A stretch of DNA of 62,993 nt, filler included, from Klebsormidium nitens (Eukaryota; Plantae; Klebsormidiophyceae), in the NCBI GenBank assembly GCA_000708835.1. It is 6 parts of 6 records of this genome, joined end to end, with 100 filler letters (N's around TTAATTAATTAA, not from the genome) between each part and the next. Parts side by side here need not be neighbours in the genome. Positions count along the whole stretch, not along the records: positions 1 to 30,371 come from DF237784.1; positions 30,472 to 38,071 come from DF238297.1; positions 38,172 to 42,876 come from DF237752.1; positions 42,977 to 47,327 come from DF238553.1; 2 more parts are not named here. One strand, 5' to 3'. Under the pieces are notes generated by a model. The model did no database searches, was not told where the DNA came from, and saw only the letters and a list, made by a program, of their open reading frames with translations. Both the position numbers and the translations under genes were made by a program. This document shows, piece after piece, positions 1 to 43,560 of the stretch (the first letter of the stretch is position 1; each line of letters starts with the position of its first letter).

Positions 1-457
1 GACGTTGATTGATTTCCTCCAACGTTCTCCAGTTTTTGAATTCCCTCTCCGTCATCTGTTGGGCTGGCCTGGCATCGTCCATGAGCTTCCTTACGGCAGT
101 ATACCTGTTATACAAGGCCTCGTAGATCTGTTGCTCGCCAGGCCATAGCTTGCGTGCTATGACCAAAAGTGGGTTTAGGTAGGTTGCTTGTGTTGGAAGC
201 TTGGTGGAATAAGTCCTCTCCAGATACTCAATAATTCTAGCCGTATCTCTCACCCAGTCGAGGCTATCAAAATCCTCCTTTGGAGCGTACATACCCTTGA
301 ATAAGCGTTGTACACGTGTACAGTACTGATTAATTGTGAAGGGCTTTCTTGTGCCATCATCAAACACAGTGTGAAGCAATCGCTCAGCTGTTGAAACTGT
401 AGTTATAACCTTTATGTCGGCCTTTAAAGCTCCCATGCTTGGGGTATCTAGATACAT
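1..457 (-). CDS. N-terminal half of a PLV/virophage-type (OLV11-like) tyrosine recombinase, copy A; runs off the left window edge
   Basis: Manual translation from ATG 457 is open to the edge: MYLDTPSMGALKADIKVITTVSTAERLLHTVFDDGTRKPFTINQYCTRVQRLFKGMYAPKEDFDSLDWVRDTARIIEYLERTYSTKLPTQATYLNPLLVIARKLWPGEQQIYEALYNRY...QMTEREFKNWRTLEEINQ. It is collinear with 42235-42876, whose continuation carries LCLYTYSPAVRNDY, the first catalytic Arg motif of this recombinase family (recognised from memory). Confidence 0.7.
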   Translation of the reverse strand, partial: MYLDTPSMGALKADIKVITTVSTAERLLHTVFDDGTRKPFTINQYCTRVQRLFKGMYAPKEDFDSLDWVRDTARIIEYLERTYSTKLPTQATYLNPLLVIARKLWPGEQQIYEALYNRYTAVRKLMDDARPAQQMTEREFKNWRTLEEINQR

Positions 458-698
458 TGATAAAAATGTTGACCAGCAACCGACCGCGGGCGGCCTAGAT
501 AACGAATATGTATGTACATGAATTTTTTCACCAATTTGATGCACGTAGAAGCTTTTGTTGGTTATCTGGCGCGCAAAAGCTCCTACAACCCGGCAAACGG
601 ATTTCTGATATCGGCCGATATCAGAAATGCTCTTCGCTATCCGCAGATACCTGAATATGGGTGTACATATTTCGTTGAACGAGGCTTTTTAAGCAATT

Positions 699-1250
699 CT
701 AATATCTAGGTGAGGAGCTTTCTGGAGATGCCTCGGTCACGCGAGCCTTCTGTGGATTTGCAAGCATGTCTAAGCCTAATATTGGCTCAATATCATCGGT
801 CCAAGCAACGCTCGGGGCATACCGTGGTGACTCGTAGCATTCCTCATGCTGTTTGTCAGCCGTCGGGAGAGGGCTCTCGATCTCATGCAAAACCTCCCGT
901 GCCTTGGACCGTAAATGACGAGCCCGACGTCTAGCGCGTTGTGCACTGTTCAAGGCAACTCTCCAATCCACTTTGACACCGTAAGGGCCATTCACGCCAG
1001 TCTTGTCCCACCACGCGTTGAAGCCTTCCGCAATGAGGGATCTCACCAGAGCACGAGTTATGTGGTCCAAGTTGAAGGGATGGGTGAGCGCTCGCATGCC
1101 ACCTAAAGCTGCAGCATCTAGGATCGTATTCAATATTCCGAATTCTTGATAACTCCGCACTATTGCGGACCGTGCAGATTCGAGTACATGACGATCCATC
1201 TCGAGGATTGCGGCCCGATTCAATGGGCGATAACCGAGAATTGCATCCAT
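699..1250 (-). CDS. Conserved unknown element ORF (ORF-C), copy A
   Basis: MDAILGYRPLNRAAILEMDRHVLESARSAIVRSY...RSLIAEGFNAWWDKT aligns with 41425-41967 (MDMILGHRPQSRFAILEMDKNVLDLARSAIVRCY...RSLVAEGFNAHWDKT). Both frames are open despite many nucleotide changes. Confidence 0.7.
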   Translation of the reverse strand: MDAILGYRPLNRAAILEMDRHVLESARSAIVRSYQEFGILNTILDAAALGGMRALTHPFNLDHITRALVRSLIAEGFNAWWDKTGVNGPYGVKVDWRVALNSAQRARRRARHLRSKAREVLHEIESPLPTADKQHEECYESPRYAPSVAWTDDIEPILGLDMLANPQKARVTEASPESSSPRY

Positions 1251-1312
1251 GCTGATGAATGTACACGAAGGAAATTCGAAAGCTGTTTGCACATGGCTTG
1301 TGTTGCGTACTC

Positions 1313-2424
1313 CTATGTGCTTCGAGCTACACATCGTTTGAAGGCCTTTGAATCCTTAAATCTCTTCTCTAACTCGATAGTAATCCAGCTCTGCCGAGCT
1401 TCTTTGAGTGCCTTTCTTGATCCCTCCAATGCGCTCTCATAGTCGGCAAACCTCACTAAGTATGCCATGTATTCATTGACGAGCGTCATCTCCACGTTCA
1501 GCCACGCCTTCCAAAGCATACCTCCGGCTTTTTGGGCACTTAATCCGGGTTTGAAACGGTCGGAATTGAGTGGCCCAAAGAGTTGGGTTGCATAGCATGC
1601 TCGAATGATCTCCCAATCCGAGCGGTCAAATGTGTTGCGCTCAAGCTCTCGCCGTATGATGTGATTGTAGAAGCGGGCAAATTGCTGTAGGTGCCTGAGG
1701 CTTCTTCCCTGCATTTGGAAAAAAGACCATTCATGAATATAGCATATGATTGAAAGAGGATGTACACCACCAATTACTCAATATCGATAAATGTACACGT
1801 CCAATAGCTATATAATCGTGTACATCAACCAACATGTTGACAAGCTAACAACAAAATTACTGGGCAACTCACCTCCACCTTGTCCGGATGGAATCGGAGA
1901 GACCATGCAGAATGATTCAAGTGAATCTGCCCGCTATTGAATCTTGCCTTGACCTCTTGGGCGCCAAATTCGGCATCCGCGAGCAGCCATGAGATAGGTG
2001 GTGGCATGTACTCTGGACCCTCGGGCTGGGGCGGTTGTGGGACAGCGGTGATGGCAAGGGCACGGTACTTTGCTATGTGACGCGCGCGAAAGACGGCCCG
2101 TTCTCCCGCGATCGTGGTCCTGTACTTTACAACGGCTGTCTGATTGCTTTCATGTCTCACTTGACGGGCGGCCTCTGGATCTAGACCATGGAACTTTGAG
2201 ACGGGTCGATCGCTCGGCAGCTTTGCCGGCTCGCAGCCAGTCCTCCTACGATGAGCTTCTATGGCTTGCTTCGATGCAAAGCCCTTGCTACAAGTCACGG
2301 ACTGATTCTGTGAGTGCCGCTCGAGGCACACAAAGCAACTGTCATTCTTCTCCCAAAGTTGGGGAGTAGCTTGCGGAATGGGAGGCTCGGGCGAAGCGGT
2401 TGCGGCGTCAGTGAATGTCGCCAT
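1313..2424 (-). CDS. Spliced C2H2-like zinc finger + J-domain-like protein, copy A; exons 2424-1873 and 1708-1313
   Basis: Donor GAG|GTGAGT at 1873/1872 and acceptor TGCAG|GGA at 1709/1708 are both phase 0. The join gives LRFHPDKVE-GRSLRHLQQFARFYNHI. CSKGFASKQAIEAH lies upstream. The same junctions occur in copy B. Confidence 0.7.
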
Positions 2425-2489
2425 AGTGTGACTTATGTGTAGTAGGATTGAGCATTTGGTGCACCTCGCTATTCCCTAAGCTCATGCAA

Positions 2490-3500
2490 AACACTCTCGA
2501 TTCGCCAATAAATATGCCTTGAAAGTTCCTTTGTTGTGCGAAGGCCTCGACAATTTGCACCATCATGCTATACAAGCAAGCCTTCACAACGGTGCATATT
2601 GACGGCTTAGTAGATGTCCTACAACGTGCTCCAAAGAAACTGCGCGGCATGGTTCGAAAGGGCCCCGACAATTTGCACCAGCATGCTATACAAGCAAGCT
2701 TTCACAACGGTGCATATTGACGGCTTCGTAGATGTCCTACAACGTGCTCCAAAGAGATTGCGTGGCATGGTTCGAGAGGGCCCCGACAATTTGCACCGAC
2801 CGTTCTATACAATGAAGATTTCAAGCCAGTGCAAATTATTGTCTGGTTCTCACTATCAACTACAACGTCTGACAAAAGCGGTCGGCATGGTCGGCAGACA
2901 ATTTGCACCAACGGTCCTATACAAATAGGATTTCTATATTGCAACGAAATCCCGACTCATGATTTGTCAACAATCGGAAGTTACATGTATGATCCTCCCG
3001 ATCCTAAAGCTTTGACAAAGTGAACCCATTTATCCCGTGTTAACATTCATGTATAGATCGGCCACTAGGAGTGGTTTCTTCAACCCGAGATTAATCGAGA
3101 ATGTACATCAATCAAGCATGCTTTAATTGATTATGTACACGTTAATGGCCATATAATCGTGTACATCATCTAACATGATGAAGCAAACAAGCCAACAACA
3201 ATGGGCGACTCACCTCCATCTTGTCGGGGTGGAATCATTAGAGACCATGCAGAGTGGCTCTGCGCGGCATGGCTCGAGAGCCGGGCCCAGTCAATTTGCA
3301 TCATCATACTATACAAAGAAGCATCAATAACAATGCAAAATGATGACGGCTTCATGCCATCTCTTACAATACTAATTGGAGAAAGTGTCCGGCATGGGTC
3401 CGTCAATCTGCACCATCATGCTATACAAGGAAGCCTGAATAACAATGCAAAATGACGAAGATCGTGCCATCCCACTTAATATGCATAGTAATGAAGGGCC
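2490..3500 (-). repeat. Degenerate ~120-bp tandem repeats plus a decayed copy of the J-gene exon 1 end and intron start
   Basis: CAATTTGCACCATCATGCTATACAAG-like unit recurs near 2550, 2670, 2790, 2900, 3295 and 3405. 3130-3260 mirrors 1790-1910 (HSAWSLMIPPRQDGGE versus HSAWSLRFHPDKVE). Confidence 0.7.
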
Positions 3501-3619
3501 GCCCGGCCTTCGACCATCCCACTTAATATGCATAGTAATGAACGGTACGAACGTCGTGTCCGAGTGTCCGAGATTTTGACAAAACTTTTTCAACAGCTGC
3601 GGGTATCCGAATCGTTGGG

Positions 3620-3900
3620 CCTGGACCACCCCTCTCAATATGTGCCGATTTTTGTAATTTATCGAGCGACCAGACAGGAAGACAGGACAGACGGGAGTTC
3701 GGTCCAAGTCTCCCGGCCTATCGCGACCATCCCAGCCAATATATTGAACGTTTTATTATTTCCGACCGAACAGACAGGAAGACAGGACAGACGGGAGTTC
3801 GGTCCAAGTCTCCCGGCCTATCGCGACCATACCAGCCAATATGTCGACCCTTTTATAATTTCCGAGCATACAGACAGGAGACGGCACAGACAAGAGTTTG
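3620..3900 (+). repeat. ~100-bp minisatellite with ACAGACAGGAAGACAGGACAG core (about 3 units)
   Basis: Units are directly visible; the same family occurs at 12030-12730 (+) and 39930-40165 (-). Confidence 0.85.
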
Positions 3901-4079
3901 GTCCTCCGGCCGCCTTCATATGACCGGGTGAGAGCAGTGAGAGCAATTTTTGGCAAGGTTGCTTTTACCCGGGCTAACTCGGTTGTCTGGCATGCGTCGC
4001 CCGGTCAATTTATCGGAATATTGTTGATTTATCGCGCCTGAGAGCGGTGAGAGCGATGAGATTGAATTTTGGCAGGGTT

Positions 4080-6872
4080 TCTTTTGGGACCGGGAGGCCC
4101 CTCACTGACTTAGGGACAAGGAGCAGCCCAAGGGGCGGGAGCTGGGCGGGACCGGGAGCGGAGCGGCCGGTGACTACAACCTTAGGGGTAAGCGACCGGC
4201 TGGGCCGAGCGGAGCGGCCGGTGACTACAAGCTTAGGGGTAAGCGACCGGCCTAGACCCTGGCGGGGTGCGAACCGGAGGACTGGGGGCAACCGGAGCGG
4301 AGCGGCCGGGGTTGGTACAAGCTTAGGGGTAAGCAGCCGACCCAAGGGTGGGGCGCACCGGCCGACCCAAGCCCCGGAGGGGGCGTGGGGAAGCCGGAAA
4401 TCAAATCGGATAGCCCTTAGATACATACATATTAGCAAAGTTGCCGGGGGTCAAACACTCTCGTACTGTAATCTGTTATAAAAATTTTCTTCTGGACAGA
4501 GGAAAAAAATTATAACAGATTAGCAGTACGACTTTTGTCTTTGGGGACCTCGTTGCGAATATGTATGTAGTAAGGCCATACCCAAAAAGATAGTAAACAC
4601 TAATATTTATTCTTTTAGAAAGTCAATTATAATATTTACTATCTTTTTGGGTATACCCTTAGATACATACATATTCGCAACGAGGTCCCCAAGGACAAAA
4701 GTCGTACTGCTAATCTGTTATATTTTTTTCCCTCTGTCCAGAAGAAAAATATAACAGATAAGCAGTAGGACTTTTGTCCTTTGGGACCTCCTTGCGAATA
4801 TGTATGTAGTAAAGCCATACCCAAAAAGATAGTAAGATATTATAATTGACTTTACAGAAGAATAATATAACAGATAAGCAGTACGACTTTTTCCTTTTGG
4901 GACCTTGTTGCGAATATGTATGTAGCAAGGCCATACCCAAAAAGAAAGTAAATATTATAATTGACTTTCCGGAAGAAACATATAACAGATAACTTGTTAC
5001 CCACTTAAGAACAGAAAGCAAAATATCGGCTTTTTGTCTCTAAGTGAGTGCTCGGTGGTCCCAATCAACCACACTTGGGCTCGTACCGGCTTCTTTTTTT
5101 TGGGTCCGGGAGGCCCCTCACCGACTTAGGGATAAAGAACAGTCCGGAAGGGGCGAGAGCTGGGCGGACCGGGAGCGGCCGGGGCGACTACAAGCTTAGG
5201 GGTAAGCGACCGGCCTGGACCGGGGCGGGGTGCGAACCGGAGGAGCGGCCGGGGCGACTACAAGCTTAGGGGTANNNNNNNNNNNNNNNNNNNNNNNNNN
5301 NNNNNNNNNNNNNNNNNNNNNNNNNNNNNNNNNNNNNNNNNNNNNNNNNNNNNNNNNNNNNNNNNNNNNNNNNNNNNNNNNNNNNNNNNNNNNNNNNNNN
5401 NNNNNNNNNNNNNNNNNNNNNNNNNNNNNNNNNNNNNNNNNNNNNNNNNNNNNNNNNNNNNNNNNNNNNNNNNNNNNNNNNNNNNNNNNNNNNNNNNNNN
5501 NNNNNNNNNNNNNNNNNNNNNNNNNNNNNNNNNNNNNNNNNNNNNNNNNNNNNNNNNNNNNNNNNNNNNNNNNNNNNNNNNNNNNNNNNNNNNNNNNNNN
5601 NNNNNNNNNNNNNNNNNNNNNNNNNNNNNNNNNNNNNNNNNNNNNNNNNNNNNNNNNNNNNNNNNNNNNNNNNNNNNNNNNNNNNNNNNNNNNNNNNNNN
5701 NNNNNNNNNNNNNNNNNNNNNNNNNNNNNNNNNNNNNNNNNNNNNNNNNNNNNNNNNNNNNNNNNNNNNNNNNNNNNNNNNNNNNNNNNNNNNNNNNNNN
5801 NNNNNNNNNNNNNNNNNNNNNNNNNNNNNNNNNNNNNNNNNNNNNNNNNNNNNNNNNNNNNNNNNNNNNNNNNNNNNNNNNNNNNNNNNNNNNNNNNNNN
5901 NNNNNNNNNNNNNNNNNNNNNNNNNNNNNNNNNNNNNNNNNNNNNNNNNNNNNNNNNNNNNNNNNNNNNNNNNNNNNNNNNNNNNNNNNNNNNNNNNNNN
6001 NNNNNNNNNNNNNNNNNNNNNNNNNNNNNNNNNNNNNNNNNNNNNNNNNNNNNNNNNNNNNNNNNNNNNNNNNNNNNNNNNNNNNNNNNNNNNNNNNNNN
6101 NNNNNNNNNNNNNNNNNNNNNNNNNNNNNNNNNNNNNNNNNNNNNNNNNNNNNNNNNNNNNNNNNNNNNNNNNNNNNNNNNNNNNNNNNNNNNNGAACCG
6201 GTGGAGCGGCCGGGGCGACTACAAGCTTAGGGGTAAGCAGCCGGGCCAAAAGGTGGGGGCGCACCGGCCGACCCAAGCCCCGGAGGGGGCGTGGGGAAGC
6301 CGGAAATCAAATCGGACAGCCCTTACATACATACATATTAGCAGAGTTGGGGGGGGGGTCAAACGCTCTCGTACTGTAATCTGTTATAATATTTTTCTTC
6401 CGGACAGAGGAAAAAATTATAACAGATTAGCAGTACGACGTTTGTCCTTTGGGACCTCTTTGCGAATATGTATGTAGTAAGGCCATACCCAAAAAGATAG
6501 TAAAATATTATAATTGACTTTCAGAAGAAAAATATAACAGATTAGCAATAGGACCTTTTCCCCTTTCGGGAATGTTGCGAATATGTATGTAGTAAGGCCA
6601 TACCCGAAAAGATAGTAAAATATTATAATTGACTTTCAGAAGAAAAATATAACAGATTAGCAGTATGACCTTTTCCCCTTTCGGGAATGTTGCGAATATG
6701 TATGTAGTAAGGCCATACCATAGATTATTTCATTTCATATTATATGCGACTTTTCAGAAGAAAATATAACAGATAACAGTACAGGTTGTTTCCTTTTGGG
6801 ACTTTTAAGTAAATGTATGTATGTTACCCACTTAGGAACAAAAGGCAAAATATCGGCTTTTGTTCCTAAGTG
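4080..6872 (+). repeat. Tandemly duplicated ~1-kb terminal module: GC-rich GCTTAGGGGTAAGC repeats, 115-bp AT-rich repeats and hairpin
   Basis: Unit 1 spans about 4080-5095 and unit 2 about 5096-6872 (N gap 5275-6194). AATATGTATGTAG starts at 6465, 6580 and 6695 (115-bp period). Confidence 0.85.
6829..6872. other. Perfect 16-bp inverted repeat with 12-nt spacer (candidate recombination or terminal site)
   Basis: CACTTAGGAACAAAAG-gcaaaatatcgg-CTTTTGTTCCTAAGTG. Degenerate relatives at about 5002-5046, 12948-12990, 13499-13545 and, inverted, 39399-39450. Confidence 0.8.
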
Positions 6873-7050
6873 AGTGCCCGGGTGGTCCCAGTCAATCACA
6901 CACTGGTACGTACCGTGAGTCCGGAGAGCTTTCGACCGGGTTGGACCCCTCCACTAGTGACCTGCAACCTTTCTGGGCCGGGGGGCTGACGTGGCGCCCT
7001 CCCAGTGGCCAAAGATTAATGCCGAACTTCATTTGCCTTGCTGATCCGAT
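6873..7050 (+). promoter_or_regulatory. Conserved post-hairpin GC segment upstream of a gene (putative element-borne promoter)
   Basis: Shares GTACGTACCG...CTTTCGACC...GACCTGCA...CTGACRTGGCG...ATGCCGAACTTCATTTG with 13545-13810; weaker match at 43420-43560. Confidence 0.45.
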
Positions 7051-7139
7051 CTGTAGCGCCTACGCTTTCTTAATATTTGGGGCAACTTATCTGCTGACAA
7101 GAGCCGTGTTCCTAGCCAGGTCCTGGCTGTCCGTCCACA

Positions 7140-10100
7140 ATGGCACCCCACATCTGGCTTAAGTCAGATGATATCAAGCCTTGCCAGTTTACAGTAAAAG
7201 ATGGCAAGCTAAATTTAAAACACATATGCACCGTCTTTCAGCTAGACGTGAGCAAGCCGTTGCGCTTGGGCGACTGGTGGCCAGAAGTCACAGCGGATGG
7301 TTGGGCAGAGTATGATGAGGATTGTGCAGTGGGGAAGACGAAGAACACAGCCTCCCCTATAGAGGGAACCTCAAGTGAGTCAGCTACACCTTTGATCGTA
7401 TTTCGGGTTTAATGATTTGAGGCCGTTCTTCATGTAGCCTGCTGAAACTATCATGAGGATTGTCAAGGCTTGCGCATTCCGCGGGAAGAAATGATGTACT
7501 TCGATTTGTATGCTCCTCCCCGGGCTCGAACAGACGAGCAGCTGCAGCAGAGAGAGGATAGGATTAGGAAAGTGAAAGTGAAAGTGACCTGTACCTGGAC
7601 GTTGCCCGCGTGTTTTGTTGCACTGACCTCGGGGAAGGCCTTATTAGAACTTGCTGGAATCGACTAACTGCGTTAGGATGGTCGATTCAGGTGACAATTG
7701 CAAGCAAGCCGCACCGCAAGTATCATCACCTCAAGGAAGTTTTATGTAGGTGTGCAGGATTTCAGATGGATCATTCAACTGATAGCAGTGTCGCTTTACC
7801 TCGGTCTGTGTGAAGTAGATGCTCCTCTGGAAAATTTAACCTCTTTCATTGGCAAGCCTCAACTCTTTACGTACTCCAGCAACATGTCTTCTTGCATGTG
7901 CAGCTGCCAAACACTTGTCCTCCTCATTGTTTGCAGCTCGCCCCGCTCCCATTCCCATTGTGAAGTTCAGCATCAAGAGGACGGGGGGCAAGCCCTTCGA
8001 GTTTTCAATGAGAGCCCCAGTCGAGTGGCCTGCTTTCGAGCAGCGCTTTCGGACTGAATCTGGCTGGGAGGTGGGGCTTTTCAAATTAAGTGCAGAGACG
8101 GGACTGGAAGTCACAGAGGACATGTGGGCTACGCATCTGCGATTGGAAAGTGATGGAAAGGCGGTCGCTGAGGTGAAGCTGGTGGCGGAAAAGCTTGACA
8201 AGGGGTTCTCAAGCTTCTCGCGCACCGATGGGCTGTCCTACCTGGAACTACCAAAGAATTATGTGAGTATATTAAACCGCATGAGCTGCCAAACACCCAT
8301 TCCCAATTGTTGTCTGCATCAATGGTAAGCGATGGGTGCCAAAACGGGCCTGTCTGGATAGCTTGAGACGTTCTTTTACCAAGTAGTAGCCTGATGTTGT
8401 GTCTGTGTTCCTTATCCCGTTTTTTTGCGTTTGAGGTTGATCTCCAGTTTCTTCTTGCAGGTCATGGTTTTTTGAATGAGCAGACATGATGTCAATTTTT
8501 TGGGCTGCTGCCAGCTGCTCTAGCATCTTCAGTGTTTTTGGGTGGCGCTATGGACAGTAAAACGCCCTTGCCAATTCTGCGCAGGTTCCTCTTTCCCTCT
8601 CTTTGCTATTCACTTCTCCTTTTTCCTTCTGAAGTTCGATGCTGATTGGGATTGGTCTGTCACGTGGACGAAAGGCAAGGTTCTGTCTCATTCAAAACGC
8701 GGATCAGTGGCTTGGCAGCATAAACTGAAGTTTCTTCTCGATTGTAGACTGTCCGGAAGGAGCCCAACGTGTTCCAGCGTGAAGCTTTTGGCAACCTCGC
8801 CGACTTGGTCAACCAGCGGCTCAAGGGCTTCGAAAAGTGGACTTTGAAAGAGCTTGTGACGCACTTTGTGAAGGACATCCAGCTCCGCATGCTTGTTTTT
8901 AGGTGAGTGTCAGGTTATCAGTGATCGGCTCTCTTTCCACCTCCTTCAATGCGCTCTCTGTTCTTACCATGGGATAAAAGCATGGTTGCAGTTTTGAGTC
9001 ATCTCCAGAGTCTAACTGTGCTTTGCCTAAAGTGTGTCCCTTTGGTGGCTGTTTCCTTTGGTGCTACTTTCAGTTGGGGGACAAGATGTTTCTACTTGCA
9101 ACTACGGAGTTGGAGACAGGTCAGCTTGTACCTGGACTGTGGATCTGGGGGCATGCCTAGAGGGGTGTTGTACTCGCGGCACTCAAAGAGCGCACCTTAG
9201 AGGTGCTTTTGATCCAAGGAGAGACTTCAGTTGGGAAGGAAACGTGGTCATGAACGCTCCACCTGTAACAGAACAGGCAAGCGTCACTGCATGACTCTAC
9301 CTTCTCATAAAGAAAATTTAGTTTTCAGTGCACTTGAAGACGATGGCAGCTACAGATACAGTGGCCCAGGACACTCAGGGAGAAGCATGCTTGACCTCTT
9401 AAATACACGCTTCTCACTCGATTATTACGCTTTTTGGCTGCGTGCAGTTCTTTCACGATGCAGGGCCTTGAATTAACCCGGAGGGAGCTCATCTCCCCGG
9501 TGCTGATCCTGGCCTCGCTTCTGGCAAAGAGCCAGGTAGAGCTGCGGGCGGAGGCGACCGTACAAGGGTCCTTGGGATGCGGGCCCATTGACTACACCGC
9601 CCTCATAGAACAGGTCCAGATCCTCCTGACAGAGGCGAAGAAGGCTGAGCTCAAAAAAGCGGAGGGCCAAGTGAGACAAACGAGTTTTGTTCAAGGGCTG
9701 CTTCTTAATCCAGACACGGACCTTGAGAGGAAACCTATTTCAGCATGCCAGGTTTCAGAAAGAATTGCTTGCATCTACCTTCAGTGTTGAGCTAGTGCGA
9801 TCACTTGTTTGCACTATCTGTTGCGTTTGCTCTCCGAAGAAAAGTCGATTCGCACTTCTTGCACATGCAGCTGTACGCGGAGATGGCAGCTTCTCGAGAG
9901 GCTCTCGCGAGGGTCATCGACCCGGGCACGAAGAAGCGGAAGTTTGCGGAGCTCGACGAAATCCTCGAAGGGGTAAGACACTTTTGTTCTTGAGCTCTGC
10001 ACAACTTCAAGCCTCGCCTGCCTTATCTCCGTGGCAAGCCCCACGCCAGCATCTTTGAGCTGAGCGGGCTGAAAAAGCACCCATCTCGTTGATGGAATCA

Positions 10101-10720
10101 TCGAGGCGGTGAAGTTGAATGCAAGGAAAGCTGGCAGGATGCGGGTAAACAGCCACCAGAATCTGCCAGTCTCTTCTGGTATGCTCTGAATGATATTGCA
10201 GTTGAGTAGTGCTCTGAACGGAGTCTGTCATGACTCCGAACTCGTATACGCCCACCTCCTTCTGTAGGATAGCTATTTGTTTTTCCCTTCAGAATTCCAA
10301 GCTCTTGAATGTCCATCTCCTCATTGCACGTTGTCATAATCTTTTCGGAATACTAATGTCGTGTTGACCTGAGTATGGAAGTTTTATTCTTTCAGATTAG
10401 CACGACGGGGGTGCGCACCGACGCGCAAACCTGGGTGCTTTCCCGGTACGTCAACAAGACCCTGGTTGAGTCCGAGGAGATGAACATCGACCTGAAGAGC
10501 CCCTCGGACAAGACCCTTCAGGACCAGCTTATGGTCGTTGTAGGGGCCCTTACGGGGGCGATGAACACCCACATCACGGAGTATGAGACAACGATCAAGA
10601 CTAAGAGGCAACGGAATGTAAGCTGCAGCCTTGAGAACTGTTTTTGTTGAGCAGCAAACCTCTGCCTGATTTTCGGTCTCCCAACCTTAGCTCCTTCAAG
10701 TACAGGTTTAAAAGGGTTAG
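7140..10720 (+). CDS. Multi-exon Crinkler/CR-type effector with C-terminal PD-(D/E)xK restriction-endonuclease-fold domain
   Basis: Phase-0 exons 9464-9670, 9871-9972 and 10396-10617 join to RRELISPVL...GCGPIDY...LLTEAKK...EGQ|LYAEM...LEG|ISTTGVRTDAQTWVLSRY, matching the G-x-G-x-V/I-D-Y, EAKK, Q-x-x-x-x-M and G-I-V-T-D-x-x-x-W pattern of CR-REase domains. Upstream exons from 7140 are less certain and the 3' end is approximate. Confidence 0.7.
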
Positions 10721-13550: not shown

Positions 13551-13810
13551 CGGTTGATCCAAGTCAAGTGCCCAAGGGTACGTACCGGCTTTCGGAATGG
13601 CTTTCGACCCCGGTTCGCCCCCCTCTGGCGACCTGCACCGCTTTGGGGCCTGACATGGCGACCTCTGATTGGCCCCATTTTTATGCCGAACTTCATTTGG
13701 TTTGCTGGCGAAACGGTCCCGACCGCCGGTCGTGGGAAGGCCCCCGGGCCAGGGGGGACACGTGGCGCCTATCGAGCGGTTGAAAATAAAGGCCGAAGTT
13801 CATTTGGTTT
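13545..13810 (+). promoter_or_regulatory. Conserved post-hairpin GC segment upstream of the F-box gene
   Basis: Homologous to 6873-7050; GCCGAA(C/G)TTCATTTGGTTTGCTG is duplicated near 13686 and 13792. Confidence 0.45.
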
Positions 13811-32439: not shown

Positions 32440-33990
32440 GTGCCGGGGTTGAATTAGGAGGAGTTCGCGTTCGAGACGACTTTCCCCCTCTATACAACTT
32501 AATAGAAAAAGCTTGTACACTCTCTCAGAGCGGGACTCCGAAGAGGAGCACACGAAGTACTAATGGGGACGGAAATATTACAAGATTTGGCTTCATTCTC
32601 AATCTCATCATTTCAGCCTTCCTTGGGATGAAAGCCTTCATTTTCTTCATTATTTTCACGATTCCGTTCATTGCCTTCATTATTCCGGCAAAGCGTCTTC
32701 ATTATCCTCCGTATATTCATCATTCCGTTCATGATCTTCACCAGCCATACACGTCTACCCCCCGGTTCATTCCTCTCATCTTCCTCCTTTTTTTCACTGA
32801 AGAAGTTGAGGAAGATGATGAAAATATTGAAGGGCAGCGCCCCGCTCATGCGGCGCCACGCGTCCGGTCGAGCCCCCGGTTCATTGTGCTGTTACCAAAG
32901 TACGTACCCCGGTACTCAGCTGTAGCGCCAAAATTCGCGTACCGATAGAGTCCGGTACTGTACCGTCGGTAGTTGCGGAACCGGGGGACAGATTTTATAC
33001 TCTCTCTTAGCCTGCCAGTATCTTGTACACAAAATTTGACACTCAGAAAACTAGTAAAACTTGATTTCGGTCGGCGCGACAAGCTGGAGCTAAGTGAACA
33101 GAGCGACTTCAGTACGTTTGCAGTACCTCAAACCTTTAAACTCTTGACAGACTGGCGTACTTTCGGTTGCGTCTGCCCGGGGTAAGCGGAAACGGGGGGG
33201 GCGGGGGGGGGTGCCTCCCAGCATTTCCCAATGGCCTCATCCTCATTTTCATCAATATATTCACTGAATAAAATGTGGCGGATGAAGGCCCGGAACCCGG
33301 GGGTAGAGGTGTCGCAAGACCTGACACTTGTATATTAGGGTAAACAAAATGATAATTTTCTTCATCCTCATTTTCATCATTATTTTCAGCAGCACCCTCG
33401 GCCCGGCTACACGTCTACCCCCGCGTTCACTGCTCTCATCCGCAACATTTGCTTCATTGAATATATTGATGAACATGAGGATGAAGAAATTCACCAATTC
33501 CGATAATTATTAAACAAGTGCCAGGCTTTGCGACACCTCTACCCCCCGGTTCACCGCGTTCATCCGCCACATTATCTTCACTGAGATCTCGGATGCTGCC
33601 CGGGCCCAGGTTCATTTTCATATTCATCATTTTGNNNNNNNNNNNNNNNNNNNNNNNNNNNNNNNNNNNNNNNNNNNNNNNNNNNNNNNNNNNNNNNNNN
33701 NNNNNNNNNNNNNNNNNNNNNNNNNNNNNNNNNNNNNNNNNNNNNNNNNNNNNNNNNNNNNNNNNNNNNNNNNNNNNNNNNNNNNNNNNNNNNNNNNNNN
33801 NNNNNNNNNNNNNNNNNNNNNNNNNNNNNNNNNNNNNNNNNNNNNNNNNNNNNNNNNNNNNNNNNNNNNNNNNNNNNNGGGGGGTAGACGCGTAGCCGGA
33901 GATATAATGAAGAGGCGGAAAATAATGAAGGAATCTGTATATATTCATAATCATCAATGAGGAGAAAATTAGCGTGAAGTATGAAAGTTG
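32440..33990. repeat. Foldback-like low-complexity element with inverted CTACCCCC(G)GGTTCA motifs
   Basis: The motif occurs near 32752, 33411 and 33533 (+) and inverted near 33295 and 33880. 33293-33331 is the reverse complement of 33515-33551. The motifs are embedded in ATC/TTC-rich sequence with an N gap. Confidence 0.55.
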
Positions 33991-35920: not shown

Positions 35921-36690
35921 ATGTACCACGACCTAAGCGCGGCGGGCGCGCTCGTCAAAGTTCAAGGGGATCACCCTCCTCCCGCGGCAGAAGCCGCGGC
36001 ACGTCAAGAGGCGAAAGACGAAGAGGCGCTAGCTGGGGAGATGGCCGCGCGCAAGCGCGCGGAGTTTTACTTCGGGAAGAGATTTCAGGTGAGGGAGTGC
36101 TTTGCACTGCAAGACAAGAACGCAGGGGAAACGACTGCCAAAAGTTACTTCGGGAAGAGATTACAAGTGAGGGAGTGCTCTACGCCTTAAAATTACAAGA
36201 GCGACCTCCTATTTTACTTTGGGCCGAGATTCCAAGTGAGGGAGAGCTTTCCGCCTCGAGTGAGCTGAAAGATCAACCGGACGACAAGCTGGAAATTGCG
36301 ATCCTAAGAAACATCAGGCCAGAGGATCGGGAAGCACATTTGGGGCCGGAGTGACACCACCGCTGCAGGGCCTGAAAAGTCGCAATGTGTCTTGGAGGCT
36401 TTTGAAATGGGCCGAGCTGAGGCCAAATTCCGCTTCGCCTTGACGATCGATAATCCCGGTACAAGATTCTTCACGGCTGGAACACCTACGAGCAGTGGAT
36501 TCCCTTCAAGCATTGCAAAACGCGGTTCGAAATGATCCACGCCGTCTCCCCCCCCCCCTGCTAGGTCCTGGACTGGAGCCCCCCGGAGGACGACGACGAC
36601 GCGGACGAGCAGATGGTGTACCCGGACGCGGCGTGTTCACACCTCACGGAGGACGGCGACGAAGGCGAGTACACCGCCGAGTACCAGGTC
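35921..36690 (+). CDS. Exons of an unidentified spliced gene
   Basis: MYHDLSAAGALVKVQG...EFYFGKRFQ|GTGAGG (donor at 36089) can join CTAG|GTC CTG GAC TGG (VLDWSPPEDDDDADEQMVYPDAACSHLTEDGDEGEYTAEYQ|GT) in phase 0. No family recognised. Confidence 0.4.
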
Positions 36691-38412
36691 GCCCGATTCG
36701 ACCGGCAGTGGGGCTCGTGTTACGCCCAAAAAAAAGCAAAGTGGGGAAAGAAAGGCTCCGGTTGACCCAAGGAGGGGAGTACACTATACCGAGGAGCCGT
36801 TATCGAGGGGATGGCGTGTTCGCACCTCACGGAAGACGGCGACGAAGGAGAGTACACTGCCAAGTACCAGGTCGCCCGGTTCGACCGGCAGTGGGGCTCA
36901 TGTTACGCCCGGGAAGCTTCGGAACGGGAAAGGAAAGGCTCCCGGTGAGACAGTTGTTAGGAATGGGAGGAGATCGAGAGAGGTAACCTGGGGAAGAATC
37001 TGTTCACGCGAACCGGTTCGTTCCGACGACGAGAAGAGTCCTGATGTCCTGGCCTTGGCGAGCAGGTTTAACGGGGAAACTCAGCTTTTGGGAACGAACC
37101 ACTTTTCCCTCAGCGGACAATCAATCCCAGAGGGACTGCTCTTGAGGGTTCTGAGCAACTCGCGATGACAGCCGAGAAATGAGCGCCTGCGGCGCGCAGT
37201 GGTCTAGGTGAGTCGCCCTGACGGCTTTTGAGCTTCCGCAAGAATTCGAAGCCGGCGTTGGGATCTTCACTTACCTCTACGCGACCTCCGGATATCGAGT
37301 GTGCTGCATTCGGATTGATACCTGGACTGAGAACGTGTACAGTTAAACGATTCGAAGAGGGGCATTCGAAAGAGACTCGAAAGGGATAGCAATGACATTA
37401 GACGGAACACAGTTCTGGCCGAGATCTTTCTCCCCGATCAAATATCAAGGCTGACGTAGGATCTGGAGACTGCACATTTCTTGGTTTATACGCCGTACTC
37501 AGAACTCCAGCAGACTATTTGGGTTTGGCGTTATACGTTTCCGAGCTACCAACTCTTACGGCTGTGGTCAAGCCGTTGACCTTTCGAGGTACTGCCCCCA
37601 TAATGCACCTTCCGCTTCCAGGCTGTATACTTACCTCGTATGCTCAACTCATTTTGCAGAGCCGATGACGAATCCTCGAGAACTTGTTTGTTCTACAAAG
37701 ATGGTCCGCAGTCACTAAAGCCAGGCTCTCCGTTGAATATGAATAGCATCAGCACGATCTGGTACGATAGTCGCGTTGGCGACTTGAAGGTGACTTATCG
37801 GATGATTTGCGTCCGTATTCGCTTGCATTTCACCTTATTAGGACACCAACAGAGCGAGGCTGTTCCCGCCACTACTCTGCTAATTGCGATCATCGAGTTG
37901 AGCACTCTGAATCTGGCTAGAAGAATGTAATGTAATTGGCGGATTGCAGAAATCAGAAATTCCTCGGGACGCTCGAAGCCATAGCGCAGTGCAGCCGCCT
38001 GCAAAACATCAACACAAACGGATGCGAGTCTCAGGCTAGTACTTCTAGCTGCCCTGCGCAGATTAAGGTGCNNNNNNNNNNNNNNNNNNNNNNNNNNNNN
38101 NNNNNNNNNNNNNNNTTAATTAATTAANNNNNNNNNNNNNNNNNNNNNNNNNNNNNNNNNNNNNNNNNNNNGTGCCTGCTTTTTTGAATGATGCCAAACA
38201 AAACGTTTGAATATGCATAGTGCATAGTGCATAGTGCTTAGCAGCATCGTCTTCCTCTTGCAAGTCGTTCTGTGCACAAGATGTGTAAGTTGAGTGGGCA
38301 GTCATTGCCTTTGTGACTTGCTGAAACCCGTCTGTGCGCACCCTTTTAGAGGATGCAACTCACAAAACGCTTGGAAGTGCTTACTAAGAACAGTCCCCCT
38401 CCTTTTGTGCAG

Positions 38413-39021
38413 CTCGTCCTGTGCACCAACTACCTGCCAAAGACGGACAAGACCTGGTCCGTTGCATTGCGGCGGCGTCTGCAGCTCGTGTGCTTCCTCA
38501 AGCGTTACTTCTCCCCACACGAGAAGGGATACGACCCCAACAACCCGCTGCACGGGCCCGTGGATACGCGGCTTCTTGCCACGTTGACCACGGAGCCGAA
38601 CATGCAAGAGCTTTTGGCGTGGCTGGTGGCGGGAGCTGTGAAGTGGTACCAAAACGGACAGCAGCTCTACCCCATGCCAAAACGGAGTGAGCAGGCACTT
38701 CGTGAGTACGAAGAAGAAAACGACGACTTCGAGGCCTTTGTGCGCAACAGCTGCATTGTTGGAGAGGATCTCTTTATCTCCACCAAGGCGGCTTTGGAGG
38801 CGTACCATGATCCTCAGCGAAAGGTGGACGGTACATTCGTCTCGAACTGCAGTGCACTCAAGAATAAGAGCTTGAAAGTAGTCATGATCAACCATGGATA
38901 CAAAGGCCCAGGAAAGCCTAGCGAGCTCGGATTGGGGGGGGAGTATACCGGTTCTCAAGAGCGAGGGTACCGAGGTCTAGCCTTGAAACCCCCTGGGCAG
39001 TCCCTTGGAGAGTTGTCTTGA
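38413..39021 (+). CDS. Last exon of a D5/P4-like primase-helicase (superfamily 3 helicase C-terminus plus winged-helix region)
   Basis: Acceptor TTTTGTGCAG| then LVLCTNYLP...ALRRRLQLVCF...ELLAWLVAGAVKWYQNG...REYEEENDDFEAFVRNSC, covering motif C, the arginine finger and the C-terminal pattern of D5-like ATPases. Walker A/B exons were not found (N gap upstream). Confidence 0.85.
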   Translation, partial: LVLCTNYLPKTDKTWSVALRRRLQLVCFLKRYFSPHEKGYDPNNPLHGPVDTRLLATLTTEPNMQELLAWLVAGAVKWYQNGQQLYPMPKRSEQALREYEEENDDFEAFVRNSCIVGEDLFISTKAALEAYHDPQRKVDGTFVSNCSALKNKSLKVVMINHGYKGPGKPSELGLGGEYTGSQERGYRGLALKPPGQSLGELS

Positions 39022-39398
39022 CAACGGAGGCACCGCTACGTTGGAGTAACTTATTTAACGGCTTTTCTAGCTGTTATTGCTCCAATATTTGAAGTATGTT
39101 TCGAATGAGAATCCAGCACTGGTTTGTCCGTTAGGTTCTATAAAGTTCCATGTTGGTTTGTAGGGTGTTAGTATTGGATATTGGTTGGTGTACATCTCTC
39201 ATAATCTTGATGATTCTATGTGAATGTACACGATCCACTTCAATCTTGCAGCGACTGTTAACGTATGTATATTGTTTTCAACACGTCGCACTTAGAGTGT
39301 GTGCTTGAAGGCGCAAACACAAAGTCCGCGCCGTGGTTCGTAGTTAAAGTGATCATAGAATCGACAATCCCATATTGTATTCGTTTGATTCATTCAAA

Positions 39399-40165
39399 CA
39401 CTTGCTTAGGGATAAAAGCCAATATGTAGCCCTTTGTTCTTAAGTAGGTAATCTATATATGTTATCTAATAAAGGTTTGAAGGTAGAATCATTGTGTTTT
39501 ACTTCTTCTGAATTGACGCACATAATATGGAATGGGATAATGTATGGCATGGCCTTATTACATACATATTTGCACGTGAGGTCAAAAGGGAAAGAGTCCC
39601 ATTGTTTATCTGTTATAATTTTCTTCCGGAAAGTCAATTATAATATTAAGCATCTTTTTGGGTATGGTCATTTACTACATACATATTTACAATGAAGGCC
39701 CGAAGGAGAAAAGTCGTAATGCTTATCCGTTATAATTCTTTTCCTCTGGACAAAAGAAAATTATAACAGATATGAATATGAAATGGTCGGAACCTCCTCA
39801 ATCTTGCTGATATGTATGTATGTACTGTTGCCCATCGGTCGCTCGTCAACTTAAAGGGGCATGCATGCGCATATTGTGTGGCTTGAAGGAAGTATATCCC
39901 GGCGCACCCGTCGGGCTTTACAAACTCGTGTATGTCCCGTCTGCCCGTCTATAGGCTCCGAGAATTACAACCTTCGGATATGATGCCATGTGAATATTGA
40001 GTATATGCCCTGAGAAAGGCTTGCCAATGCTCCTGTCTGTGCTGTCTTCCTGTCTGGTCACTCCGTAAACTATAATAGCCCAACATGTTGGCAGGCATGG
40101 TTGAGGAGAGGCGAGGAGAATTAGACCAAACTTCCTGTCTGTCATGTCTTCCCGTCTGCTCGCTG
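39399..40165 (-). repeat. Inverted copy of the terminal module (hairpin, AT-rich repeats, ACAGACAGG minisatellite)
   Basis: Reverse complement reads CTACTTAAGAACAAAGGG...CTTTTATCCCTAAGCAAGTG at 39399-39450; TACATACAT repeats at 39540-39830; CTGTCTTCCTGTCTG units at 39930-40165. Confidence 0.8.
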
Positions 40166-40247
40166 CCATCATGTGTCATCAGTGCATGAGCTTAGGGAAT
40201 AGCGAGATGCACTAAACGTTCAATCTTTGACACGTCTAGGTCACACT

Positions 40248-41342
40248 ATGGCGACATTCACTGACGCCGCAACCGCTTTGCCCGAGCCTCCCATTCCGCA
40301 AGCCACTCCACAACTTTGGGAGAAGAGTGGCGCTTGCTTTGTGTGCCTCGAGCGGCACTCACATATTCAGCCCGTGACTTGCAGCAAGGGCTTTGCATCG
40401 AAGCAAGCCCTAGAAGCTCATCGTAGGAGGACCGGCTGCGAGCCGGCAAAGCTGCCGAGCGACCGACCCGTCTCAAAGTTCCATGGTCTAGATCCAGAGG
40501 CCGCCCGTCAAGTGAGACATGAAAGCAATCAGACAGCCGTTGTAAAATACAGGACCACGATTGCGGGAGAACGGGCCGTCTTTCGCACGCGTCACATAGC
40601 AAAGTACCGTGCCCTTGCCATCACCGCTGTCCCACAACCGCCCCAGCCCGAGGGTCCAGAGTACATGCCACCACCTATCTCATGGCTGCTCGCGGATGCC
40701 GAGTTTGGCGCCCAAGAGGTCAAAGCAAGATTCAATAGCGGGCAGATTCACTTGAATCATTCTGCATGGTCTCTCCGATTCCATCCGGACAAGGTGGAGG
40801 TGAGTTGCCCAGTAGTGATTTTGTTGTTAGCTCGTCAACATGTTGGTTGATGTACACGATTATATAGCTATTGGACGTGTACATTCATCGATATTGAGTA
40901 ATTGGTGGTGTACATCCTCTCTCAATCATATGCTTTGTTCATGAATGGTCCCCTTTCCCATATGCAGGGGAGGAGTCCAAGGCACCTACAGCAGTTTGCC
41001 CGCTTCTACAATCACATCTTAGAGCGGGAGTGCAACACAATTGACCGTTCGAATTGGGAGACGGTTCGTGCATACTACGCAACGCAGCTCTTTGGGCCAC
41101 TCAATTCCGACCGTTTCAAACCCGGATTAAGTGCCCAAAAAGCCGGAGGTATGCTTTGGAAGGCGTGGCTGAACGTGGAGATGACGCTCGTCAATGAATA
41201 CATGGCATACTTAGTGAGGTTTGCCGACTATGAGAGCGCATTGGAAAGATCAAGAAAGGCACTCGAAGAAGCTCGGCAGAGGTGGATTGCTATCGAGATA
41301 GAGAAGAAGTTTAAGAATTCAAAGGCTTTCAAACGTTGTTAG
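40248..41342 (+). CDS. Spliced zinc finger + J-domain-like protein, copy B; exons 40248-40799 and 40968-41342
   Basis: Phase-0 intron 40800-40967 (GTGAGT...TATGCAG) gives FHPDKVE-GRSPRHLQQFARFYNHIL; near-identical to copy A. Confidence 0.72.
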
Positions 41343-41424
41343 GTGCAGGCCGCAGATTAAGTAGGTGCTCGAAGCTTTGGATTTTTTGTTTCCTTATCAT
41401 CAAGACAGCTCTCTTTACAACCAA

Positions 41425-41967
41425 ATGGACATGATTCTAGGGCATCGACCCCAGTCTCGGTTTGCCATTCTTGAGATGGATAAGAATGTACTCGATCTCG
41501 CAAGGTCTGCAATTGTGCGATGTTATCGCGAGCAGGGTCTTTTGAGCACGACACTCGATATCGGTAGCTTGGCTGGTATCCGAGCATTAACTTACCCTTT
41601 TGATCTTGCGCATATCACACGAGCGGTTGTTCGATCGCTCGTTGCTGAGGGATTCAACGCCCATTGGGACAAGACCACCTTGAACGGTAATGGATCTTTG
41701 TACGTTGTACACGTTAGCTGGAGACTTGCCTTGAACTATGCGCAAAGGGCCAGGCGCAAGGCCCGTGAACGTCAAAAGCAGCGAGTCAAAACACACAAAG
41801 TCCCGACCGATGATATGGCTCATGACAGCAATTGTACATCTCCGGGATACGCCCCAAGTATTACTTGGATAGACGATGTGGATCCCGTCCTCGACCTAGA
41901 TATGCTGGCAAACCCAGATAAGCTCCTCAAAAGTGATGGATTGCATGATATACCGTCCCCTAGATAA
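41425..41967 (+). CDS. Conserved unknown element ORF (ORF-C), copy B
   Basis: Homologous to 699-1250, with a conserved start Met. Confidence 0.7.
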   Translation: MDMILGHRPQSRFAILEMDKNVLDLARSAIVRCYREQGLLSTTLDIGSLAGIRALTYPFDLAHITRAVVRSLVAEGFNAHWDKTTLNGNGSLYVVHVSWRLALNYAQRARRKARERQKQRVKTHKVPTDDMAHDSNCTSPGYAPSITWIDDVDPVLDLDMLANPDKLLKSDGLHDIPSPR

Positions 41968-42234
41968 TAAACTTGCTAAAAAGCTACCGTTTCACAAAAA
42001 ATGTACCACCATATTCACAGTATCTGGCCTTATTCACTTATCGGCCGAAAATCTACTATCTACTAAGGGGACCAATGCGGGTTCTAGAAGCTTTTGGTCG
42101 TTAGATAACCTGTAAAAGCTCCTACATGACATCAAGACCAATGAAAAGATTTTGAACTTGGATATTCACTTATCCAGGCCCTCGAGGTAAGTCGCTTGGT
42201 CGAAATTATTTTCAAGTATCTAGATAACTTAGTT

Positions 42235-42876
42235 ATGCAAGCGTCCAACGACGATATCAAAACCGTAACCACTCTAACAACAGGCGAAAAGCTACTGCAC
42301 AAGGTTTTTGACGATGGCACCCGAAAACCTCTGACTGTTCTCCAATACTGCAACCATGTTATGCGACTCTTCAAAGGCCTTCACGCTCCAGCTCGAGACT
42401 TTGATAGTTTGATTGGATTAAAGATTCAGCTGCTATTATTGAGTATTTTGATAACGCTTATTCCACCAAGCTATCGATGCAGGCAACGGGCTTAAACCCC
42501 CTCCTAGTGGTCGTGCGCAAAGTATTTCCCAGTGAGCAGCAACTCTATGATGCTTATTACAAGAGGTACACTGCTGTCCGTGAGATGATGGAAAAGGCAA
42601 GGCCACCTCCGCAGGTCATGACAGAGGCCGAGTTTAGGAATTGGAAGTCTCTTGAGCAGATTAATGAGCTTCGTACAACGCTGCAACGGCGCGTGAATCG
42701 AACGATTCTCCCCAAATCGCCCGATCAATTGACGATTGGAGACAAAGTGATCCTCATTCGTCACTTAGTGTTGTGCCTTTATACCTACAGTCCAGCCGTC
42801 CGAAACGATTACTCTGACCTTCCAATCCTTTGTTTTGAGAACATTGGCACCGCTGCGGCAAAGGAGCTAATGGAAG
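42235..42876 (+). pseudogene. PLV/virophage-type tyrosine recombinase, copy B, with a 1-nt frameshift; truncated by an assembly gap
   Basis: Frameshift near 42408-42411 relative to copy A (DFDSL/DWIKD). LVLCLYTYSPAVRNDYSDL has the catalytic Arg codon at 42801. The C-terminal HxxR/Y motifs are not visible. Confidence 0.68.
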
Positions 42877-43399
42877 NNNNNNNNNNNNNNNNNNNNNNNN
42901 NNNNNNNNNNNNNNNNNNNNTTAATTAATTAANNNNNNNNNNNNNNNNNNNNNNNNNNNNNNNNNNNNNNNNNNNNGCAAGGAGACTGCAAACGTGGGGT
43001 GGCACAGGGCTTCATACGGAAGCACTGTCAGTGGAAGAGTATACGTGAGTTGTATTTCTTCATACACATTTATACGAGAGATTGTGGTCGTTGGCTGGAA
43101 TGGTATGGGATATTCCCTTGCGTAGCACTTAACTTCTGGGTTGCGCATGTCAGGCTGACCTCTCGTACACACCACGATTCCGCTGCCCACTGGTGCGAGT
43201 TAGCTTGTCAGTGACTTCGGGGTTACTCCCAGGTTGCGGTTAGTGACGGGTTAGCTTGCGTTAGTGTAACTCTGAGCCATTCGGAGGCGGGAACTAGTCA
43301 AGCGAGTGGTTTTGAGTGACTAGTGGTCCCGGCGTTCCGGTGGTCTTTCTAGTTCAGTACACATACCTGAAAAAGATGCCATTTCGTAATTGCCTTTTT

Positions 43400-43560
43400 G
43401 AGGAAGAAGAAATAACCCTAGGTACTTAGGGAGTGCATGCCCGGATCGAACTGGTACCACTTGAGTCTCCGACTTCAGGGTTCGACCCCTGGTACCACCT
43501 TCACTCTTTTGGGTCTTGGGGGGTATGACGTGGTGGCCTGGGAGTGGCCCAAATTTAACA
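43400..43560 (+). repeat. Diverged copy of the post-hairpin GC segment
   Basis: CTTAGGGAGTGCATGCCCGG...TTCGACCCC...TGACGTGGTGGCC...GTGGCCCAAATTT resembles 6866-7020 and 13540-13680. Confidence 0.45.

Follow-up and report, generated by a model that had tools for sequence, protein, structure and literature searches.

Polinton-like viruses (PLVs) are described as pairing a tyrosine recombinase with an interchangeable replicase (PMC9356565, 10.64898/2026.10.13.758929), the OLV11-like family of such recombinases having been named by Yutin et al. (PMC4642659), and endogenous viruses are stated to be without introns (PMC10120064, PMC9356565). Whether Polinton-like elements can be true transposons is a matter still to be settled, and supposedly ‘capsid-less’ cases have generally turned out, once examined more closely, to contain a capsid gene, as is recounted for Trichomonas (PMC10120064). 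It is in this context that we consider a 62,993-nucleotide stretch of the Klebsormidium nitens genome (GenBank assembly GCA_000708835.1; hereafter the window), which contains two copies, A and B, of an element with a tyrosine recombinase, two further genes (gene 1 and ORF-C, after open reading frame, ORF), characteristic repeat arrays and, beside copy B, a D5-type helicase (Table 1). The mobile element itself is real. Our tentative reading, to which we give slightly less than an even chance, is that it belongs to a multi-copy mobile family with a shared 64-bp end, which stems from PLVs, has lost the capsid module, has adapted to its host and moves within the algal nucleus. Host adaptation is suggested by the spliced helicase, the GT–AG intron conserved in gene 1 and a host-like GC content, the latter being 0.39–0.53 per kb in the copies and 0.44–0.58 in the intervening host stretch. 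The initial annotation gave the span 1–43560; copies do lie at both sides of this span, but most of 7044–12030 and 13815–38071 is non-element DNA with host genes, for example those for leucine-rich repeat (LRR), DnaJ and ATP synthase g proteins. Five spacers of 100 bases (N44, a 12-letter stretch that puts stops in every frame, N44) at 30372, 38072, 42877, 47328 and 54092 appear to be joins of unknown length.

The evidence for mobility comes from contigs mapped to the window, in which X1 denotes same-strain contigs, X5 a metagenome and X9 a run guessed to be RNA, the direction of the contig record coordinates having been fixed from X9 record 26. For the stretch 6815–14600, 24 of the 102 loose ends are listed, and the counts of ends are therefore lower bounds. 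At least ten contigs (at least four from X1 and at least six from X5) stop exactly at position 7043, the outer edge of a 64-bp motif, and their flanks are unrelated; others stop at 13814 (at least two from X1) or at 13708 (at least three). Agreement of the flanks among contigs at a shared end is 0.46–0.60. At least 13 X1 contigs have the end motif with different inner DNA, and at least four of these have inner letters like those at the right side of copy B (loose ends before 13651). Moreover, X5 contig 28 (4448 nt, depth 9) covers the flank 7043–10989 with 97 differences in 3954 nt, i.e. ca 97.5% identity, and then extends 494 nt beyond 7043 into DNA unlike the element. Either this contig is an empty site, or a break arose there independently at precisely that base; the insertion or excision is later than the split of the two ca 97.5%-identical genomes.

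The 64-bp end motif is new, and its pattern has no match (0) in the metagenome and viral contigs. The terminus is this motif and not, as first proposed, a hairpin, since the strong hairpin lies ca 170 bp further in, with homologues at 4996, 12944, 13496 and 39398. A decayed copy of the motif at 43520–43563 is likely to be the recombinase-side end of copy B, the linkage being across an unsized gap. The motif faces outwards both there and at the module side of copy A, such that the two would constitute short inverted ends.

The cassettes of copy A (65–2488, minus strand) and copy B (40183–42605, plus strand) are inverted with respect to each other and are 76.6% identical over 2482 columns, with the order gene 1, ORF-C, recombinase common to both. 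In other words, the inverted three-gene cassettes of the initial annotation stand in their coordinates and gene order, but they are not uniform duplicates. Identity is 0.78–0.99 across 40183–41360 of copy B and 0.58–0.67 thereafter. The gene 1 protein is 95%/87% identical between the copies, with dS (synonymous divergence) of 0.07 and 0.24 and dN/dS (dN, non-synonymous divergence) of 0.33 and 0.28 for the two exons, whereas the synonymous sites of ORF-C and the recombinase are saturated (proportion of differences, pS, 0.78–0.92; dN 0.25–0.34) with the protein conserved. Gene modules have therefore been exchanged between old subfamilies, and gene 1 has been shared between the copies recently. 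The mosaic is more than a product of assembly because X1 contigs cross both identity switches, at 38172–40269 (three differences) and 41259–42068 (no differences). A few positions within copy B gene 1 carry the copy A letter in every contig.

Alongside the cassettes, repeats of four types and the hairpin occur in the same order in copy A, in copy B and in a gene-less module at 12–13.8 kb, according to profile mapping, which agrees with the initial proposal of a shared repeat and hairpin module beside both cassettes. Within copy A, a 260-bp palindrome at 4607–4865 consists of two inverted internal R3 units. No end motif is found between the copy B module and the helicase, a stretch for which one X1 contig spans 38172–40269, nor at the inner edge of the gene-less module (12035–13707). 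The gene-less module had been given as lying at 12–13.5 kb; it is present (12.0–13.8 kb), but it may not be a true solo module. An X1 contig covers 6972–13699 with 0 differences, making the module continuous with host DNA, and X1 record 6 stops at 13699, while X1 record 8 joins 13645–14600 to 2386 nt unlike the window. It is possible that 13645–13820 contains an assembly misjoin across the end motif, or else a recombination or rearrangement between two element ends. Next to this end, X19 contigs identical to an LRR (F-box-like) gene at 14000–15439 start at 13845, 31 nt outside the element end at 13752–13814. This element end contains CACGTG, which we take to be G-box-like, and it might serve as a promoter. 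In the flank of copy A, the short segment 7445–7604 occurs in other X1, X19 and X20 loci with differing left flanks, as a multi-copy exon or small repeat.

Turning to the genes, the copy A part of the recombinase is 44–70% identical to the full-length relatives P0002, P0004, P0005 and P0014, and a search with the copy B fragment gave 13 relatives of 294–997 aa at 59–69% identity; a profile search gave 58 matches, many of them distant relatives of ca 310 aa. All named homologues of the genes in the element come from K. nitens. Across 36 aligned relatives the catalytic residues (Arg207, Lys253, Arg320, His346 and Tyr355 in P0002) are invariant or at least 90% conserved, and the profile of these 36 matches solved integrases (3nkh at E 8e-7, XerA at E 4e-4), Phage_integrase being matched by six of them. 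The predicted model of P0002 (pLDDT 91, pTM 0.83) has Cre as its first PDB match, and in BFVD it finds proteins of algal and protist giant viruses, a virophage and similar at E 1e-10 to 5e-5, which is far stronger than the match to Cre. The tyrosine recombinase fold proposed initially is thus well founded. A model built on 10 sequences was of low quality (pLDDT 55) and was set aside. As modelled on its full-length relatives, the family is a tyrosine recombinase of virophage or PLV kind, and the more specific ‘OLV11-like’ label would follow from structural and sequence neighbours, OLV11 itself standing outside the alignment. In a midpoint-rooted tree of 44 rows, both window fragments fall within one clade of 15 rows (support 100/99) that comprises several subfamilies; the two fragments fill less than half of the columns, P0011, P0012 and P0013 are truncated, and other fragments and several short matches are excluded. 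With regard to viral relatives, the close-family profile finds no locus in the metagenome or viral contigs and none was found for the outgroup recombinases P0026 and P0078, but a virophage contig with both the major capsid protein (MCP) and the minor one (mCP) carries a 24%-identical relative of one outgroup recombinase.

The last exon of a D5-type helicase does adjoin copy B, as was originally noted. It shares 71–72% identity with a pair of D5_N+SF3 proteins of K. nitens, located on scaffolds of 10.8 and 11.5 kb, and three paralogues lie on scaffolds of 10.8–13.1 kb. An X9 contig of 1755 nt covers 38412–39486 with two differences and extends 681 nt further upstream with an intron skipped, its loose end upstream of the exon (the consensus of three contigs) being in frame with the residues that precede the exon in the paralogues. 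The skipping of the intron with the frame kept indicates splicing and transcription either of this gene or of a twin almost identical to it, where the RNA nature of X9 is a guess backed solely by the in-frame skip. A near-identical twin of copy B is possible, so the transcript may derive from that twin. An X1 depth of 36–37 at the helicase/module and recombinase, as compared with 20–23 elsewhere, was considered as a sign of such a twin and set aside, depth not being copy number. Likewise rejected was a difference in X8, a run that looks base-converted, where C is changed at 93% in the helicase contig and at 40–65% in cassette contigs, since an 80% likeness filter biases these values. The upstream exon has one match with two mismatches in the visible window, which is chance level.

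The join of helicase and module is not unique to this locus, because a diverged X1 contig also joins the helicase 3′ region to the hairpin (39157–39457, 42 differences). In three gene models from other places in K. nitens, part of a recombinase is fused to a primase-helicase (Prim-Pol+D5_N+SF3; Prim-Pol+NrS-1-like; NrS-1-like), which we read as annotation fusions of adjacent genes; their helicases are 27–28% identical to that of the window, or unrelated. Recombinase–helicase adjacency recurs three times outside the window, and the PLV-like pairing recognised at the outset extends beyond copy B. No viral relatives were found for helicase P0022, and the sole viral match of P0074 is a tailed-phage locus at 26%.

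Gene 1 had been described as a zinc-finger/J-domain gene, a label that the profile results do not support. A J-domain profile of 71 sequences (70 bacterial and the window's own DnaJ) picks out the FHPDK stretch alone, at 0.6–0.8 bits, scores equalled by 15 of 500 and 12 of 500 shuffles (copy A: 0.8 bits, 12 of 500). A sequence-recognisable J-domain of ca 65 residues, with HPD between helices II and III, is not supported at this shuffle-level score, and the zinc finger falls under the Pfam cut-off (E 0.004, 17.6 bits as against 25). The predicted GT–AG intron, in the same place in both copies, restores a single frame; of the spliced genes originally proposed, the helicase is corroborated by the X9 contig and gene 1 stands as a prediction. 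Among 1463 candidates no longer homologue of gene 1 exon 1 was found; X3 carries diverged paralogues of exon 2 (loose ends at 41112 and 41180). ORF-C has no match in Pfam, PHROGs or NCBIfam and no viral relatives in IMG/VR; its central motif may resemble a giant-virus protein that is small, conserved and hypothetical, for which no library gave support. The top Atlas scores, 0.77 for gene 1 and 0.75 for ORF-C, serve as leads only. The Pfam scans, here and below, covered 23 + 74 + 62 ORFs, the main set comprising 74 of the 105 ORFs of at least 75 aa with 14 more added, and most ORFs located at 15.4–27.7 kb lie outside them.

The question of the capsid is central, as status as a new class rests on complete copies without capsid genes. 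No capsid, ATPase or pPolB family occurs in the Pfam-scanned ORFs, where copy A leaves the window and copy B is cut by unsized gaps, and tblastn of virophage proteins, MCP and mCP included, against the window gave no match at E 0.05, no PgVV-type MCP profile having been used. A credible alternative, to which we assign distinctly less than an even chance, is that complete members are ordinary capsid-encoding endogenous PLVs of the PgVV group and that the window holds broken remnants, with the capsid module deleted or within the gaps; the spread of such elements would be in virion form, perhaps with a giant virus as helper, and their integration would be the work of the recombinase. Several points do weigh against a capsid-free family. 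No copy in view is complete: as a minimum, what is missing of two genes around copy B, namely most of the helicase and half of the recombinase, must lie in the gaps at 38072 and 42877, and Pfam may contain no model of the PgVV-type MCP. Seven PLV-type MCP genes are tabulated on seven contigs of K. nitens (PMC10120064, Tables S1, S4 and S5), placed in the PgVV group by a table column count and by the text, and the ‘ordinary endogenous PLV’ outcome stays alive because of them; giant-virus inserts are also reported from this genome (PMC5294986). Seven full viruses would account for 14 ends, a figure near the minimum of 13 X1 motif contigs with other inner DNA. The OLV11-like recombinase is given as the most widespread such gene in the PgVV group (10.1101/2022.07.28.501842), the recombinase lies close to the end and next to a primase-helicase, as in PLVs (PMC4642659, 10.64898/2026.10.13.758929), swappable and mutually exclusive helicases are known PLV behaviour (PMC9356565), and the outgroup relative in an MCP- and mCP-bearing virophage contig is in keeping with these. 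With respect to mobility, the single empty-site contig among the matches listed is of low depth (9) and metagenome-derived, and the two-ended inverted layout combines different copies and crosses a gap. No X9 contig lies over the recombinase and the cassette is nearly uncovered; as this comes from a single run that is RNA only by guess, we do not read it as silence. What speaks against ordinary PLVs is that the helicase is spliced and apparently transcribed, that gene 1 has an intron, and that there is no GC contrast; moreover, 5 kb of repeat arrays, not dense genes, lie directly inside the end of copy A, the end is of 64 bp and not a long inverted repeat, and in IMG/VR no viral protein was found to be closely related to the recombinase, ORF-C or the helicases.

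It is also conceivable, if improbable, that the locus is a composite, in which the mobile unit consists of the end, repeats, gene 1, ORF-C and recombinase, and the helicase is a virus-derived host gene, domesticated and expressed, beside which a truncated copy B landed by chance. In this regard no helicase lies between the end and the module of copy A, the helicase contigs are deep in the RNA-guessed run where the cassette is nearly uncovered, and the helicases fused to recombinases elsewhere are of different types. The lack of an end motif between helicase and module in copy B, the same helicase-3′/hairpin join in a second, diverged contig, the three helicase paralogues on 10.8–13.1 kb scaffolds and the three further cases of recombinase–helicase adjacency all argue otherwise. 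That host genes were simply duplicated as a segment, the repeats being fortuitous, is scarcely credible, although the 95% identity of gene 1 between copies within 43 kb would lend itself to such a reading. The synonymous sites of ORF-C and recombinase are saturated and the recombinase is of viral type; above all, insertion is indicated because one end is found at many unrelated flanks and a relative is without the element at 7043, which refutes duplication unless the contigs are assembly chimeras. Sharing of boundaries among copies had been named beforehand as the condition that separates these cases, and the sharp end at 7043 provides it.

If the family is indeed a host-adapted descendant of PLVs, its recombinase would bind the two 64-bp ends as short inverted repeats and excise the element as a circle, in the manner of Tn916-type integrases. 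The primase-helicase might then copy the circle, starting from the repeat arrays, before the recombinase reinserted it at varied sites with little target specificity. Recombination among copies would account for module exchange, and defective copies could be moved in trans; those in the window look defective, given that B is frameshifted, no helicase lies beside the module of A and one module is gene-less. The strongest form of this proposal is an autonomous, wholly capsid-free class of eukaryotic DNA transposon, built from a PLV recombinase and a swappable primase-helicase. It would have introns of host type, inverted ends of 64 bp, origins within the repeat arrays and cargo that can be exchanged, and would have been mobile recently in streptophyte algae. 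We regard this form as rather unlikely.

Table 1. Coordinates of the element features in the window.
Feature	Position	Strand	Remarks
Copy A tyrosine recombinase, N-terminal part	1–457	−	leaves window edge before catalytic Arg
Copy A ORF-C	699–1253	−	184 aa; 57% identical to copy B ORF-C; pS 0.78, dN 0.34
Copy A gene 1 (weak C2H2-like motif, FHPDK motif)	1313–2424	−	predicted intron 1872–1709; 315 aa if spliced
Repeat R1, 118-bp units (2551–2934, 3292–3501) around gene 1 exon end/intron relic (3133–3256)	2551–3501		copy A only
Repeat R2, 100–108-bp units	3623–3911		repeat profiles
Repeats R4 (ca 45 bp) and R3 (115-bp AT-rich units)	4166–6821		hairpin 4996–5052; unit duplicated across 920-N gap
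Subterminal hairpin, ca 170 bp inside end	6823–6877		−17.9 kcal/mol, DNA parameters
64-bp end motif, module-side terminus of copy A at 7043	6981–7043	+	contigs stop at 7043
Gene-less module: R2 array, decayed R3, hairpins, end motif 13645–13707	12035–13707	+	profile mapping
Second end motif, directly outside the first	13752–13814	+	E 2e-17 (sequence included in profile)
D5-type (D5_N + SF3) helicase, last exon	38413–39021	+	PHROGs primase E 1e-12; upstream exons in gap 38072–38171
Copy B module: hairpin 39398–39451, R3 39517–39820, R2 40009–40154	39398–40154	−	profile mapping
Copy B gene 1	40248–41342	+	predicted intron 40800–40967; 308 aa if spliced
Copy B ORF-C	41428–41967	+	179 aa
Copy B tyrosine recombinase	42235–42876	+	reaches just past catalytic Arg, where the unsized gap at 42877 cuts it; frameshift near 42408
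Decayed end motif	43520–43577	+	E 1e-4 with profile built without it

Several other features of the window were recorded. About six dispersed direct repeats of ca 50–200 bp lie at 18212–19248, with no Pfam match in the scanned ORFs, and host genes for a protein with DnaJ and RNA recognition motif domains and for the mitochondrial ATP synthase g subunit lie at 24856–27615 and 28727–28972, respectively. A separate AT-rich palindromic repeat family at 32631–33634 (33237–33584 self-inverted; copies at 32748–32821) runs into a gap and is unrelated to the repeat profiles of the element. Left of the helicase gap, a GC-rich, ORF-like sequence at 36065–36948 contains two small tandem duplications (136 bp at 84%; ca 40–120 bp) and has no family match in library scans. 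A spliced-looking gene at 45053–47240 (minus strand) has a C-terminal ORF with no Pfam or NCBIfam match; we take it to resemble Crinkler-type proteins, for which library scans gave no confirmation. Three long ORFs at 57269–60503 (minus strand; 409, 483 including N, and 325 aa), with a hairpin or internal palindrome at 59385–59579 and 31-bp repeats, may resemble a DDE transposase relic, no library match having confirmed this.

Among known systems, the PLVs of the PgVV group (PMC4642659, 10.1101/2022.07.28.501842, PMC10120064) are alike in having an OLV11-like recombinase near the end, an SF3/AEP-type primase-helicase, likely inverted ends, integration into algal genomes and interchangeable replication genes. 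The family differs from these accounts in that no MCP, mCP or A32 ATPase is found in the gap-cut copies, and in its spliceosomal introns, host-like GC, shared end of ca 64 bp and kilobases of internal repeat arrays; neither its recombinase nor its ends are described in these accounts. In other words, of the features of a PLV it has the tyrosine recombinase, by a label drawn from its neighbours, and the primase-helicase, but not compact intronless genes; as to terminal inverted repeats and a length of 15–30 kb, outward 64-bp motifs are seen on different copies, with no single copy in view showing both ends. It is because introns are present and virion genes are not in view that the element cannot be filed as a PLV.

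Cryptons contain introns and are, likewise, eukaryotic DNA elements moved by a tyrosine recombinase, and we know of none with a helicase. They are reported to have short terminal direct repeats (PMC3627910). Here, by contrast, there are three to four genes and a 64-bp end motif with unrelated flanks, and the recombinase groups structurally with viral proteins. As for DIRS elements, no reverse transcriptase or RNase H Pfam match lies in or beside either copy, for the scanned ORFs outside the gaps. Starships are large, fungal tyrosine-recombinase elements with exchangeable cargo, in which a DUF3435 captain is the first gene, and to our knowledge they have no helicase partner. Compared with this general description, the present recombinase is without DUF3435, no match being found at E up to 1 in P0002, P0004, P0006 and P0010. 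The distinction from Cryptons, DIRS and Starships drawn in the initial annotation is accordingly upheld, there being no direct-repeat single-gene layout, no reverse transcriptase or RNase H and no DUF3435. Transpovirons and Tlr1 are capsid-less or capsid-poor relatives of Polintons and PLVs built round a helicase, which in their case is of superfamily 1 and not D5/SF3, and they are not known to have an OLV11-like recombinase as a defining integrase. The giant repeats of Amoebidium (‘Plavaka’, PMC11244446) are also capsid-less eukaryotic repeats with tyrosine recombinases of foreign origin; they form tandem clusters with intron-poor genes, reach 50 kb and are flanked by a Plavaka transposase, and no such transposase was found here.

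The element family is not described in the literature searched, the scope of which did not extend to subscription papers, Repbase or bioRxiv supplements. The transposon question can be tested with it: the alga stands close to land plants and can be cultured, an end of the element is defined, the insertion is polymorphic, the helicase is spliced, and PLVs that do bear capsids are there for comparison in this same genome. Since OLV11-like recombinases are predicted integrases only, the mapped end and empty site would be a substrate for a first direct assay. Were complete copies to carry capsids, this would still be a rare, intron-gaining lineage of endogenous PLVs; were the class capsid-free, a transition from virus to transposon would have been captured in a genome that also holds relatives with capsids. 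Set beside the systems above, the family appears to work like the integration–replication half of a PLV.

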